A stretch of DNA of 30,379 nucleotides from a virus (IMGVR_UViG_2896595138_000001:1-30379), one strand, 5' to 3'; shown: positions 2,707 to 25,507, counted from the stretch's first letter. Notes: generated by a model not told the origin, from the letters alone. Numbers and translations are program-made.

Positions 2707-2770
2707 TGAGGTAGCCTGAGTTTAACGGACACTCCTTCCTGAAATAGAATGGCATCAGAAGGAGCTAATA

Positions 2771-3073
2771 ATGAGCAGAAAAACCCAACGTTACTCTAAA
2801 GAGTTCAAAGCCGAAGCTGTCAGAACGGTTCTTGAAAATCAACTTTCGATCAGTGAAGGCGCTTCCCGATTATCCCTTCCTGAAGGCACTTTAGGACAAT
2901 GGGTTACCGCCGCCAGAAAAGGGCTCGGTACTCCTGGTTCCCGCACGGTGGCTGAACTGGAATCTGAAATTCTGCAACTGCGTAAGGCGTTAAATGAAGC
3001 TCGCCTTGAGCGAGATATATTAAAAAAAGCAACAGCGTATTTTGCACAGGAGTCGCTGAAAAATACGCGTTAA
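2771..3073 (+). CDS. IS600 OrfA (HTH transposase N-terminal part)
   Basis: 100 aa ORF with IS3-family OrfA features (MSRKTQRYSKEFKAEAV...leucine-zipper-like C-terminus). Confidence 0.9.
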   Translation: MSRKTQRYSKEFKAEAVRTVLENQLSISEGASRLSLPEGTLGQWVTAARKGLGTPGSRTVAELESEILQLRKALNEARLERDILKKATAYFAQESLKNTR

Positions 3074-3108
3074 TCGAACAATGGCGACAACAATTTCCCA
3101 TTGAAGCG

Positions 3109-3927
3109 ATGTGTCAGGTATTTGGTGTATCCAGGAGCGGTTATTACAACTGGGTACAGCATGAACCCTCAGACAGAAAACAAAGTGATGAGCGGCTAAA
3201 ACTGGAGATTAAGGTGGCACATATCCGCACTCGCGAAACATATGGAACCCGGCGGCTCCAGACGGAGCTGGCAGAGAATGGCATCATCGTTGGTCGTGAC
3301 CGACTGGCACGTCTTCGTAAGGAGCTAAGGCTACGCTGTAAGCAGAAACGCAAGTTCAGAGCGACTACGAACCCGAACCACAATCTGCCAGTTGCGCCAA
3401 ATCTGCTGAACCAGACGTTCGCTCCTACAGCACCAAATCAGGTCTGGGTGGCGGACCTGACGTATGTTGCCACACAGGAGGGATGGTTGTACCTCGCTGG
3501 CATCAAAGATGTTTATACGTGCGAAATTGTCGGCTACGCCATGGGAGAGCGCATGACAAAAGAGCTGACAGGTAAAGCCCTGTTTATGGCGCTCAGGAGC
3601 CAGCGCCCACCTGCCGGGCTAATCCACCACTCTGATCGAGGTTCACAGTACTGCGCATACGATTACCGGGTCATACAGGAGCAGTTTGGTCTGAAAACAT
3701 CAATGTCGCGTAAAGGTAACTGTTACGACAACGCTCCGATGGAAAGCTTCTGGGGAACGCTGAAAAATGAGAGCCTGAGCCACTATCGTTTTAATAACCG
3801 GGATGAAGCCATCTCAGTAATACGGGAATACATTGAGATTTTCTACAATCGTCAGCGTCGTCACTCTCGTCTGGGGAATATCTCCCCGGCAGCCTTCAGG
3901 GAAAAATATCATCAGATGGCTGCTTAA
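3109..3927 (+). CDS. IS600 OrfB (DDE integrase domain; made as OrfAB fusion by -1 frameshift)
   Basis: 272 aa ORF with DDE/RNase H-fold transposase motifs (…HHSDRGSQY…NAPMESFWGTLK…); the frame overlaps the orfA 3' end. Confidence 0.9.
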   Translation: MCQVFGVSRSGYYNWVQHEPSDRKQSDERLKLEIKVAHIRTRETYGTRRLQTELAENGIIVGRDRLARLRKELRLRCKQKRKFRATTNPNHNLPVAPNLLNQTFAPTAPNQVWVADLTYVATQEGWLYLAGIKDVYTCEIVGYAMGERMTKELTGKALFMALRSQRPPAGLIHHSDRGSQYCAYDYRVIQEQFGLKTSMSRKGNCYDNAPMESFWGTLKNESLSHYRFNNRDEAISVIREYIEIFYNRQRRHSRLGNISPAAFREKYHQMAA

Positions 3928-3970
3928 AAAAAGAACAAATGGTAGTGTCCGCTATTGCCAGTACACCTCA

Positions 3971-4500
3971 CACCTATAAGAAATCGGCAAAAGGGCGAAA
4001 AAAGAAACGTTCGAAAGGTCAGAGTGGTTTAAACAAAACAGACAAAGAACAGAGCAAATCAGCAAAAGAAGCCTGGTTGATCTTCAGCAGTACAAATGAC
4101 TTCAGAGCGCGAGAAATCATCAAGTTATACAGTCGGTGAATGCAGATAGAGCAAAACTTTCGTGATGAAAAGAACGGGCGCTTCGGATTTGGTCTTCGGG
4201 CCAGCAAAAGTCGTTCAACAGGAAGAATTCTGGTTCTGAGTCTGCTGGCAACGTTGAGCACTATCGTAATGTGGTTACTCGGTTATCACGCTGAAAATAA
4301 AGGGTTACACCTGAAATATCAGGCTAACAGCATTAAATCCCGGCGGGTTATCTCATATCTGACGTTAGCGAAGAATGTTCTTCGACACTCGCCACTTATT
4401 TTAAGACGAACAGTACTGAGCACAGTTCTAAACCATCTGTCCAGAACCTACCGAAATATGGTGCTGGTTTATTAGCAGTAATTTTGTGGGGATCCCTCAG
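3971..4500 (+). mobile_element. IS4-family (IS10-like) 3' remnant: transposase C-terminus with in-frame TGA, plus terminal repeat
   Basis: Encodes ...YSR*MQIEQNFRDEKNGRFGFGLR... (YREK signature, resembles IS10 ...YSKRMQIEETFRDLK...); ends ...GGGGATCCCTCAG at 4500, resembling an IS10 end. Truncated on its 5' side by IS600. Confidence 0.65.
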
Positions 4501-4521
4501 GCCCGAAAGGGCGGTAGTGAA

Positions 4522-22899: not shown

Positions 22900-23579
22900 A
22901 AATCGCGCGAAATTTAAACCTGATTATTCCTGTCCGGACAGAAAAGGGTAATGGCTGGATCCATGCCACGCCGATCAGCAAAGAGGTGTTTAAAGAGCAT
23001 TTCTTCATTCTGAGTAAAACTTTTTCTGCCATTTTTTCAGAAGGTCTTGGCGTCGTTGCGGGTCCGCGTATCGCTTTTTTGATGCTGGAGCGGATCTCGC
23101 GTGATTCTAATATCTGGGAAGGTGATAAAGGGGTCCGTAATACACTTGTTAATGAGGTCATTCGCCTGGCAAACCTTGTTTACCCAGTGGAGGGTAAAGG
23201 CTACGACACAATCCCTCTCGATATGGCGCTGGAGCGTGAAATCATTGATTTGGATGAAGTGGCGGGTGAGCTCATTTTTTTTTACATGCGTCTCGTCGAT
23301 AAATTCACCGGAGCAGGCGAAGGGGACTATGGATGTGGTCAATGGAGTATGGAGCACTCAATGCTCGTTATTGAATCTTACGGAATGGATCGCTTCATTG
23401 CCGACATTGAAATCAGCCGCCAGTTCTGGCGCGACGGCGAACACGTCATCAGCGACATCCTCGACTACTCAGCCGGAGCCGGATTCAGAGACATCTGTGC
23501 AGATTCCGGCCTAAATGTAAAAACAGCAGCTCAGTTTCGTGAGCTGCTCAAATTCAAAAATCCCGCAGGAGTATTGTGA
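22896..23579 (+). CDS. Putative tail assembly chaperone (227 aa)
   Basis: Sits between tube-like and tape-measure-like genes; start overlaps the upstream stop. Confidence 0.3.
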   Translation: MKIARNLNLIIPVRTEKGNGWIHATPISKEVFKEHFFILSKTFSAIFSEGLGVVAGPRIAFLMLERISRDSNIWEGDKGVRNTLVNEVIRLANLVYPVEGKGYDTIPLDMALEREIIDLDEVAGELIFFYMRLVDKFTGAGEGDYGCGQWSMEHSMLVIESYGMDRFIADIEISRQFWRDGEHVISDILDYSAGAGFRDICADSGLNVKTAAQFRELLKFKNPAGVL

Positions 23580-24243
23580 TGGCTGGTAACCAGATGCCAG
23601 TTCTGACGCTGGATGTTAATGAAGAACACCTCAGGCGGCTTGAGGCGATATTTGAAAAGTATCGCAACGGACTGATGATTGGCCCTGCCGGTACGCCGCT
23701 TAAAATACCTTCAAATACCGGTCCGGGAGGTGGCTCTTGGCAGACAACCACAGGCGGAGAAGCCAATCAGGCTCCCAGGAAACCATCTTCACCCGCGCCA
23801 GTTCTGGCTGCTTCCACTGATGGACGTTTAAGGGATGAAAAATGGCGCTTTGTTGGCAGCGGGAAAACACCTGATTCGCTGGTGAGCAACTATAAAGGTC
23901 GCGGCGAAACGATGTTTGATAAGTACCTCAGCGGGCTGGGGAAAAACGCCAAACAGACGCTGAAAACTTACAAGCAGATCAATTCTACGCTACGGACGAC
24001 CACTTCGAGATTAAACAACCTGTTTAAAACCACCGTATCGTGGGGGACAAAACTTGCGGTTATGGGCGTTGCCGGGCCGTTTGGCTTTGGCATGATGGCT
24101 CGTAATGTTGTAGAGAAACAGAAAAATGCTGATGAATTGCAGGCAACTCCAGGAGAGTTAAAGGCGGCAGAAAGCACTTATTCGCCTTATTTTTCCGGTG
24201 TTGGTAATTTGCTCAATACACTGGCAGCCGCGCAAAATGACAC
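23579..24243 (+). pseudogene. Putative tape measure protein, N-terminal fragment truncated by IS600
   Basis: Reading frame runs straight into the IS600 left end at 24244 and terminates on an IS-encoded stop; hydrophobic segment (AVMGVAGPFGFGMMARNVV) typical of TMPs. Confidence 0.4.
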
Positions 24244-24307
24244 TGAGGTAGCCTGAGTTTAACGGACACTCCTTCCTGAAATAGAATGGCATCAGAAGGA
24301 GCTAATA

Positions 24308-24610
24308 ATGAGCAGAAAAACCCAACGTTACTCTAAAGAGTTCAAAGCCGAAGCTGTCAGAACGGTTCTTGAAAATCAACTTTCGATCAGTGAAGGCGCT
24401 TCCCGATTATCCCTTCCTGAAGGCACTTTAGGACAATGGGTTACCGCCGCCAGAAAAGGGCTCGGTACTCCTGGTTCCCGCACGGTGGCTGAACTGGAAT
24501 CTGAAATTCTGCAACTGCGTAAGGCGTTAAATGAAGCTCGCCTTGAGCGAGATATATTAAAAAAAGCAACAGCGTATTTTGCACAGGAGTCGCTGAAAAA
24601 TACGCGTTAA
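24308..24610 (+). CDS. IS600 OrfA
   Basis: Identical protein to the copy-1 OrfA. Confidence 0.9.
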   Translation: MSRKTQRYSKEFKAEAVRTVLENQLSISEGASRLSLPEGTLGQWVTAARKGLGTPGSRTVAELESEILQLRKALNEARLERDILKKATAYFAQESLKNTR

Positions 24611-24645
24611 TCGAACAATGGCGACAACAATTTCCCATTGAAGCG

Positions 24646-25464
24646 ATGTGTCAGGTATTTGGTGTATCCAGGAGCGGTTATTACAACCGGGTACAGCATG
24701 AACCCTCAGACAGAAAACAAAGTGATGAGCGGCTAAAACTGGAGATTAAGGTGGCACATATCCGCACTCGCGAAACATATGGAACCCGGCGGCTCCAGAC
24801 GGAGCTGGCAGAGAATGGCATCATCGTTGGTCGTGACCGACTGGCACGTCTTCGTAAGGAGCTAAGGCTACGCTGTAAGCAGAAACGCAAGTTCAGAGCG
24901 ACTACGAACCCGAACCACAATCTGCCAGTTGCGCCAAATCTGCTGAACCAGACGTTCGCTCCTACAGCACCAAATCAGGTCTGGGTGGCGGACCTGACGT
25001 ATGTTGCCACACAGGAGGGATGGTTGTACCTCGCTGGCATCAAAGATGTTTATACGTGCGAAATTGTCGGCTACGCCATGGGAGAGCGCATGACAAAAGA
25101 GCTGACAGGTAAAGCCCTGTTTATGGCGCTCAGGAGCCAGCGCCCACCTGCCGGGCTAATCCACCACTCTGATCGAGGTTCACAGTACTGCGCATACGAT
25201 TACCGGGTCATACAGGAGCAGTTTGGTCTGAAAACATCAATGTCGCGTAAAGGTAACTGTTACGACAACGCTCCGATGGAAAGCTTCTGGGGAACGCTGA
25301 AAAATGAGAGCCTGAGCCACTATCGTTTTAATAACCGGGATGAAGCCATCTCAGTAATACGGGAATACATTGAGATTTTCTACAATCGTCAGCGTCGTCA
25401 CTCTCGTCTGGGGAATATCTCCCCGGCAGCCTTCAGGGAAAAATATCATCAGATGGCTGCTTAA
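24646..25464 (+). CDS. IS600 OrfB (DDE domain)
   Basis: 272 aa, one residue different from the copy-1 OrfB. Confidence 0.9.
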   Translation: MCQVFGVSRSGYYNRVQHEPSDRKQSDERLKLEIKVAHIRTRETYGTRRLQTELAENGIIVGRDRLARLRKELRLRCKQKRKFRATTNPNHNLPVAPNLLNQTFAPTAPNQVWVADLTYVATQEGWLYLAGIKDVYTCEIVGYAMGERMTKELTGKALFMALRSQRPPAGLIHHSDRGSQYCAYDYRVIQEQFGLKTSMSRKGNCYDNAPMESFWGTLKNESLSHYRFNNRDEAISVIREYIEIFYNRQRRHSRLGNISPAAFREKYHQMAA

Positions 25465-25507
25465 AAAAAGAACAAATGGTAGTGTCCGCTATTGCCAGTA
25501 CACCTCA

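Follow-up and report, generated by a model that had tools for sequence, protein, structure and literature searches.

Two IS600 copies as probable deletion scars in a defective ipaH3 prophage between yebY and pphA

The stretch of DNA analyzed here (IMGVR_UViG_2896595138_000001:1-30379, 30,379 nucleotides in full and hereafter called the window) holds one defective prophage, about 29 kb long, which lies between yebY and pphA in a chromosome of the Shigella/enteroinvasive Escherichia coli (EIEC) type (NCBI CP026845.1). It carries two copies of the insertion sequence (IS) IS600, and both are very probably the scars of deletions inside this one prophage. At each copy the flanking DNA is colinear with intact reference sequences up to the end of the IS, the DNA that intervenes in those references is missing, and the surrounding synteny is kept. 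Copy 1 replaces the early region, where part of an AAA-ATPase gene, the genes for recombination, immunity and replication, and the left 770 bp of a resident ISSfl1 have gone, and at copy 2 a presumed tape measure gene runs through IS600 into a distal tail-fibre gene. Since attL, attR and both chromosomal neighbors are in place, these events were internal to the prophage and involved no large inversion or translocation.

The IS600 copies and their junctions

Both copies are 1,264 bp long and lie in the same orientation, their limits having been fixed by base-by-base extension of the direct repeat (Table 1). They differ at a single base (T at 3151 in copy 1, C at 24688 in copy 2), which places a tryptophan at OrfB residue 15 in copy 1, as in E. 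coli IS600, and an arginine in copy 2 (W15R). The C shared at 3971 and 25508 is a chance match between the flanks and lies outside the element. IS600 opens with TGAGGTAG on the left and closes with CACCTCA on the right; its terminal inverted repeats, TGAGGTAGCC at the left end and GTACACCTCA at the right, are imperfect, agreeing at about 20 of 29 positions, with a TG start and a CA end. Both copies are 99.5% identical to the element whose gene RefSeq names "IS3-like element IS600 family transposase"; about 3,500 out of 5,426 E. coli genomes contain this element. The 100-residue open reading frame (ORF) orfA matches HTH_Tnp_1, the 272-residue orfB matches rve and the NCBIfam IS3 family transposase model, and RefSeq attaches the label "programmed frameshift" to the transposase gene, whose orfB would be expressed in this way.

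An initial annotation, made from the sequence, had described two direct IS600 copies bracketing 21.5 kb, neither of them with a matching 3-bp target duplication. The distance is correct when taken from start to start (21,537 bp), the DNA between the copies measuring 20,273 bp and holding lysis, terminase, head and tail genes. When the flanks were re-examined for identical triplets, no 3-bp target duplication was found at either copy: copy 1 is preceded by GAGGTG and followed by CACCTAT, and copy 2 is preceded by GACAC and followed by CCGTGAT, giving flanks of GTG/CAC and CAC/CCG as originally stated. Four simple IS600 insertions served as controls, with duplications of AAT/AAT in an E. coli Rac-like region, ATG/ATG beside the integrase gene in CP026846.1, TAT/TAT within DUF1367 in PSSR01000002.1 and TCC/TCC in the ipaH-pphA interval of CP027027.1, for which the window shows the corresponding empty site. 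Because all four have 3-bp duplications, the lack of them at the window copies is meaningful, and it agrees with the breaks in colinearity. It is no argument against membership of IS600, given that the control elements do have duplications and that both copies in the window mark the joints of deletions. Some BLAST matches with IS600 loci elsewhere that seemed to run 15-20 nt into the flanks proved to be chance similarity once the sequences were inspected.

To the left of copy 1 lies the 3' part of the AAA-ATPase gene, 99.7% identical to the 3' end of a gene annotated "AAA family ATPase" in EIEC Rac-like prophages; there the intact gene runs from GAGGTG directly into TTCACCTCC across the copy 1 breakpoint. 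The fragment itself drew no naming match in Pfam, NCBIfam or PHROGs. To the right, the remnant of ISSfl1 extends from position 771 of 1,299 to the right end of that element (41%), is 99.8% identical to an annotated "IS4-like element ISSfl1" and matches the NCBIfam IS4 family transposase model at profile positions 199-339 of 340. ISSfl1 is a member of the IS4 family and resembles IS10 in the C-terminus of its transposase and in its 9-bp duplication, and the truncated early gene and IS10-like remnant that the initial annotation had placed at this junction can now be named as the 3' third of the AAA-ATPase gene and the right 41% of ISSfl1.

Sister prophages were compared by pattern searches and short sequence stretches. 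In three of them (CP026836.1, CP026824.1 and UYIS01000022.1) ISSfl1 is uninterrupted at the copy 1 breakpoint and lies at an equal distance from the downstream genes, and to the left of the whole ISSfl1 in sister prophages stand the repressor gene, cro, ydaT, a dnaC-like gene and DUF977. A whole ISSfl1 preceded by early genes is the ancestral state, which has been lost in the window lineage. Measured against 'Actinobacillus phage vB_Apl-pPE4' (PP818812.1, here L001), about 10.8 kb of DNA has gone at copy 1. The usual repressor, replication and Q genes had been listed as absent; the window does lack all of them, and cro as well, while sister copies of the prophage have them, but the loss of Q was a separate event in which IS600 took no part.

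To the left of copy 2, the window stays colinear with the prophage at the Rac site of E. coli C7 (NZ_CP010240.1, here L007), at 99.5% identity over 7.1 kb, to the last base before IS600. At that point GCGCAAAATGACAC is followed by TGAGGTAG in the window and by TCAGCATCC in L007, which reads AATGACAC and then TCAGCATCC across the breakpoint and beyond it carries the remainder of a 691-codon gene, the baseplate genes and two fibre genes. The fragment left in the window covers residues 1-223 of 691 by tblastn and positions 1-223 of 675 of phrog_7694. That the 691-codon product is a tape measure protein is a reasonable presumption from its size, from the position of its gene, downstream of those for sheath and tube and ahead of the baseplate genes, and from a lysozyme-like domain that occupies residues 520-637 when the protein is whole; the label is weakened by the lack of a Pfam or NCBIfam match and by a PHROG family of unknown function.

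On the other side of copy 2, the fibre fragment is 98.8% identical to a 470-residue EIEC fibre gene, beginning 410 nt into it, and matches phrog_2636 (tail fibre) at positions 269-567 of 568. Sister prophages read GCAACGGC followed by CCGTGATG across the fibre breakpoint, and the 5' part of the gene is present in sister prophages and in EIEC. The missing DNA amounts to about 10.4 kb against L007 (27093 to ~37506) and about 10.7 kb against L001, and comprises the remainder of the presumed tape measure gene, baseplate genes including Baseplate_J, the first fibre gene with the gene for its assembly, and the second fibre's phage_tail_N domain. The proposal that copy 2 fuses the N-terminus of the tape measure protein to the C-terminus of a fibre, with the rest of the former and the baseplate genes lost through an IS600-mediated deletion, has thus held up. 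Residues 1 to about 222 of 691 of the presumed tape measure protein are joined to codon ~138 onward of the fibre, close relatives have the complete tail protein with baseplate and fibre genes between the two breakpoints, and L007 is colinear up to the edge of the IS and then has about 10.4 kb extra. A natural adjacency of the two fragments, the finding that could have overturned this proposal, occurs in no relative.

Recurrence of the junctions and variation among sister prophages

Both pairings of flanks recur in other strains. The two junctions of copy 2, from tape measure through IS600 to fibre, are identical in the independent assembly JARKNR010000001.1, and the two junctions of copy 1, from AAA-ATPase through IS600 to ISSfl1, recur in CP026846.1. 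The left junction of copy 1 was also read at the end of one Logan short-read contig, and the search reported 10 similar contigs. An exact scan of genome contigs gave no match to the left junction of copy 2, and an exact scan of metagenome contigs gave none to the left junction of copy 1.

At least nine assemblies, differing in architecture, have a gene for the identical IpaH protein at this chromosomal position. Five of them contain an IS600 with an IS30-like element inside it; this IS600 links a portal-adjacent gene to the fibre gene, which it meets 148 nt upstream of the window breakpoint, and its flanks are GTC/ACT. In CP026846.1, and apparently likewise in CP119446.1, an oppositely oriented IS600 joins Rz to DUF4376, the flanks in CP026846.1 being TAG/GTA. 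Like the window copies, these junctions lack a target duplication. In PSSR01000002.1 (L025 7781-9044) an IS600 joins an integrase fragment to ISSfl1 at a point 2 bp deeper than in the window, the element being followed there by CCTATAAG and in the window by CACCTATAAG; this 2-bp shift could stem from an independent insertion at a hot spot, from the loss of 2 bp or from an error in sequencing. DUF4376 and ipaH are retained in all lineages with alternative IS600 deletions.

Further IS600 arrangements were seen in the sisters. CP026846.1 holds a direct IS600 pair just 790 bp apart. In five assemblies (loci L014, L017, L010, L016 and L018; for instance L014 7190-9676 and 13647-16133), both IS600 copies that flank ipaH and the fibre gene contain an IS30-like element, which suggests that one copy was derived from the other or that gene conversion took place between them. 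The two inverted IS600::IS30 elements flanking ipaH and the fibre in genomes of the CP027027.1 type were considered as a composite transposon and rejected as such, as the copy on the pphA side has its own TCC/TCC duplication and the window represents the empty site.

Route of the deletions and competing explanations

The most likely route to each scar is insertion followed by recombination. In this model, two IS600 insertions in direct orientation would each have produced a 3-bp duplication, and homologous recombination between the two elements would then have deleted the DNA between them. The outcome would be one hybrid IS600 with its left flank from one target site and its right flank from the other, and such a hybrid would explain the absent duplication. 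None of the loci examined contained an intermediate of this process (CAC/CAC in the tape measure gene, CCG/CCG in the fibre gene, CAC/CAC in ISSfl1 or GTG/GTG in the AAA-ATPase gene), and we therefore infer the two-step route, including the order of events and the enzyme responsible. A one-step adjacent deletion driven by the transposase would leave an identical scar.

The lack of intermediates is one of several points that weigh against two deletions within a single prophage. Another is the junction in PSSR01000002.1, which, with its different left flank, fits neither simple shared ancestry nor clean independence, and a third is that no family model backs the label of tape measure. The remainder concern copy 2, and would be accommodated if this copy joined two prophages, the end of a lambdoid ipaH prophage having become attached to a contractile-tail prophage through IS600 recombination or the import of a module. 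Positions 25508-28208 of the window are 98.8% identical to L002 20001-22704, the terminal part of a lambda-like prophage (with J, Lom and side tail fibre) located at yecD in EIEC O121. The window fibre shares just ~42% protein identity with the fibre of the closest relative of its tail genes. The fibre gene of every sister is cut by IS600 within ~260 nt of its start, and the original upstream neighbor of the window's fibre allele in this prophage has never been seen directly. We nevertheless consider a joint between two prophages improbable. L001 and L007 end in the same order, with a phage_tail_N fibre, DUF4376 and the att arm, and the window's DUF4376 gene and attR arm match those of L001 at 76% and 84%. 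The intact attL, attR and chromosomal flanks would require a second crossover to the right of ipaH, and fibre modules are in any case often shared across phage types.

Alternatively, the segment 3971-24243 together with one IS600 might have entered as a circle and recombined, in a cointegrate-like fashion, with a resident IS600 flanked by GTG and CCG. The two inner flanks are both CAC and would have formed a perfect CAC/CAC on such a circle, but a 3-bp match has a chance of 1 in 64 and several comparisons were possible, so that we gave the shared CAC no weight. The circle would also need a tape measure fragment fused to the middle of ISSfl1, which is unnatural, whereas the order of early, lysis, head, tail and fibre genes runs across both IS600 copies colinear with the reference phages, and sister prophages have a whole ISSfl1 at this site with the early genes on its left. 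Entry as a circle is accordingly a very remote prospect. It is barely credible that the junctions are artefacts in which a long-read assembler misjoined flanks across identical IS600 copies. The source assembly does contain many frameshifts, such as a sheath gene that is split here and encodes 445 residues in JARKNR010000001.1, and these suggest indel errors. However, the same left and right flanks are paired in independent assemblies of other strains, and an exchange of partners would have broken the colinearity of gene order with the reference phages, making misassembly at the IS600 junctions very unlikely. The window was also considered as a composite transposon, which it resembles in having two near-identical IS600 copies around a 20-kb segment. 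This was rejected, as the outer flanks, GTG and CCG, form no duplication and the inner and outer DNA are colinear in one phage map; the colinearity means that the segment was not inserted as a unit.

Deletion within one prophage, the reading we prefer, leaves two direct IS600 copies between which recombination could plausibly excise the 21.5-kb block, an event with a precedent on pINV (PMC5629016). The expected product, an AAA-ATPase fragment joined through IS600 to a fibre fragment, was in no locus examined, its junction being at least as long as the IS and so beyond the reach of pattern scans. Such a further deletion could confuse short-read typing.

The choice of targets by IS600 may deserve attention. 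Two of the four reconstructed targets hold a 7-mer of the right end of IS600, against 2.1% of background sites (counted within 10 nt, in a post hoc comparison). The AAA-ATPase target (L003 20361-20385) is the palindrome GAGGTG TT CACCTC, which contains GAGGTGT, and the ISSfl1 target (L008 1490-1510) contains TACACCT. Elements of the IS3 family have a reported preference for targets resembling their own ends, and right-end 7-mers at the targets would fit it. It is conceivable, although we think it unlikely, that the hits of IS600 on this prophage are non-random, insertion being targeted to end-like sequences and the prophage being pared down, repeatedly and to some extent predictably, until its effector gene is left. 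This idea draws on the 7-mers in two of four targets and on at least four lineages with differing IS600-bounded deletions that always spare the DUF4376/ipaH3 end. Were it true, one would expect the 21.5-kb block between the direct copies to be lost next, and its presence might still vary within natural populations.

The decay of prophages through IS elements is already well known in the Shigella/EIEC lineage, and no new mechanism is involved here. IS1, IS2, IS4, IS600 and IS911 are expanded in all Shigella and have been linked to deletions and rearrangements between homologous copies, and IS-mediated deletion has been termed a hallmark of Shigella genomes (PMC7373316). A deletion between two IS600 copies has been observed experimentally on pINV (PMC5629016). 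The IS600 deletions of pINV and Shigella share with the window the same element (1,264 bp, 99.5%) and the same outcome. Unlike those on pINV, the events in the window sit in a chromosomal prophage and are deduced from their scars, two of which remain in direct orientation 21.5 kb apart. The ipaH islands I-V are established features of S. flexneri genomes (PMC4226921), and like them the window has an ipaH3-type gene at the attR end of a degraded, IS-crowded prophage. Mildly new are the lineage-specific set of IS600-bounded deletions in one prophage and the right-end 7-mer in two of four targets. The window shows, cleanly and in full resolution, a prophage that insertion sequences have stripped but that has kept its ipaH3 virulence cargo, and should be useful for the annotation of ipaH islands and for reading structural variation between Shigella and EIEC strains.

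The prophage frame, its cargo and its other lesions

The prophage is integrated at the yebY terminator, carries terminase, head and contractile-tail genes of phage type and has its ipaH3 cargo near attR. Three relatives, Escherichia phage Rac-SA53 (KU052037.1), L001 and L007, share 93-99.5% DNA identity with it in the same order across the integrase/att region and the terminase, head and contractile-tail genes. These relatives are near-complete at 47-52 kb, whereas the window is without the early genes, Q, most of the portal region and the DNA from the C-terminus of the tape measure protein to the N-terminus of the fibre; it is colinear with L001 and L007 but with many gaps. The window further differs from all three in its lysis region, tRNA genes, trkH and ipaH, and in its site, which is yebY-pphA and not Rac.

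Table 1. Features of the window (positions counted from its first letter)
Feature	Position	Strand	Remarks
yebY, left chromosomal gene	1..342	+	yebY annotation in E. coli matches; Pfam YebY in source record
attL core ACAGGAATCGTATTCGGTCTTTTTTT	578..603	.	Overlaps yebY terminator; repeat of 29562-29587, 2 mismatches
Integrase pseudogene	738..1772	-	Premature stop after codon 246; relatives 358 codons
DUF1187 gene	2126-2314		
AAA-ATPase 3' fragment, residues ~249-365 of 365 (last 117 codons)	2354..2706	-	Left flank of copy 1
IS600 copy 1	2707..3970	+	orfA 2771-3073, orfB 3109-3927; flanks GTG / CAC
ISSfl1, right-hand 529 bp	3971..4499	+	Right flank of copy 1; one in-frame stop
A few late-early genes	4500-6700		
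Crossover zone of Q-region deletion	5848..5908	.	Three-way alignment; all three sequences identical here
Four tRNA genes (Met, Arg, Thr, Gly)	6872-7182		
Lysis cassette: holin, lysozyme, truncated Rz	7869..8972	+	Pfam families in source record
trkH-like potassium-uptake gene, split in two	9399-10888		Between lysis and terminase genes
Small and large terminase, first 64 portal codons	10928..13522	+	PHROGs terminase families; tblastn against L007 proteins
IS110-family element (ISEc20-like)	13523..14971	-	398-aa transposase; 2.6 kb missing here
IS4, frameshifted transposase	15730..17153	+	132-aa and 337-aa ORFs; 12-bp duplication GAGCATTTGGTG
Head and contractile-tail genes (major head protein, sheath, tube, others), several frameshifted	17154..23578	+	99.5% identical to L007; PHROGs tail sheath, major head protein
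Tail protein (presumed tape measure), first ~222 of 691 codons	23579..24243	+	Left flank of copy 2
IS600 copy 2	24244..25507	+	Flanks CAC / CCG; OrfB W15R relative to copy 1
Distal tail-fibre gene, C-terminal ~333 codons (~138-470)	25508..26510	+	Right flank of copy 2
DUF4376 fibre-associated gene (frameshifted)	26461..27082	+	
ipaH3-type E3 ubiquitin ligase effector gene	27261..28976	-	Full-length match to PDB 3cvr_A (IpaH3)
attR arm	29261-29588		
attR core	29562..29587	.	26-bp repeat of attL
pphA (frameshifted), right chromosomal gene	29719..30379	+	Adjoins yebY in E. coli

The integrated state is evident from an integrase gene beside attL, a pair of att cores and an empty site in relatives, the integrase gene itself being a pseudogene. 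The 26-bp att repeat coincides with the attP region of L001, where the two arms of that phage overlap (46270-46301), and in 5,191 of 5,426 E. coli genomes, K-12 included, yebY directly adjoins pphA. Pfam finds the arm-binding and central domains of the integrase, with no match to the catalytic domain, which the premature stop cuts off, and tblastn with the L001 integrase spans residues 1-358. Given this pseudogene and the loss of portal, baseplate and immunity/replication genes, the prophage is unable to make particles or to excise by itself. In CP026846.1 the integrase is intact at 358 residues, and the IS600 with the ATG/ATG duplication lies just upstream of it.

The Q-like antiterminator region was lost in a separate deletion of about 3.3 kb, and no IS is found at the site. 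Compared with CP026846.1, the window matches the upstream copy of a phage direct repeat of ~250 bp to the left of the crossover and the downstream copy to the right of it. These repeats lie upstream of two ORF6N paralogues (compare L024 10834-11200 and 14150-14600), and the pattern indicates recombination between two internal phage repeats, not IS600, as the cause of the loss. In sister prophages the region contains an ORF6N paralogue, hok, rem, DUF1367, ybcO and DUF1133/antiterminator Q.

At the other end of the prophage, ipaH is inserted between the fibre module and the attR arm, at a place corresponding to the gap between 45936 and 45978 of L001. The leucine-rich repeats of ipaH, a minus-strand gene, correspond to four tandem units of 60 nt at 28428-28667, which are 62-100% identical to the reference unit. 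The match to the yecD prophage of EIEC O121 takes in the C-terminus of the fibre, DUF4376 and the NEL half of ipaH, the leucine-rich-repeat half being different there. As judged from these alignments, the fibre-ipaH end appears to move between phage types as a shuffled module.

Two other insertion sequences lie between the IS600 copies. The IS110-family element is the third IS at a deletion junction in the window; the 2.6 kb lost there corresponds to L007 15331-17939, with most of the portal gene and the next genes, and GTG stands on both sides of the junction. IS4 is a simple insertion into a head gene, and its 12-bp duplication is perfect. Frameshifts affect the sheath gene, four other head and tail genes, DUF4376 and pphA. 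Some of these may be indel errors of long reads and not real decay; the sheath gene is intact, at 445 residues, in JARKNR010000001.1, which shares the copy 2 junctions.

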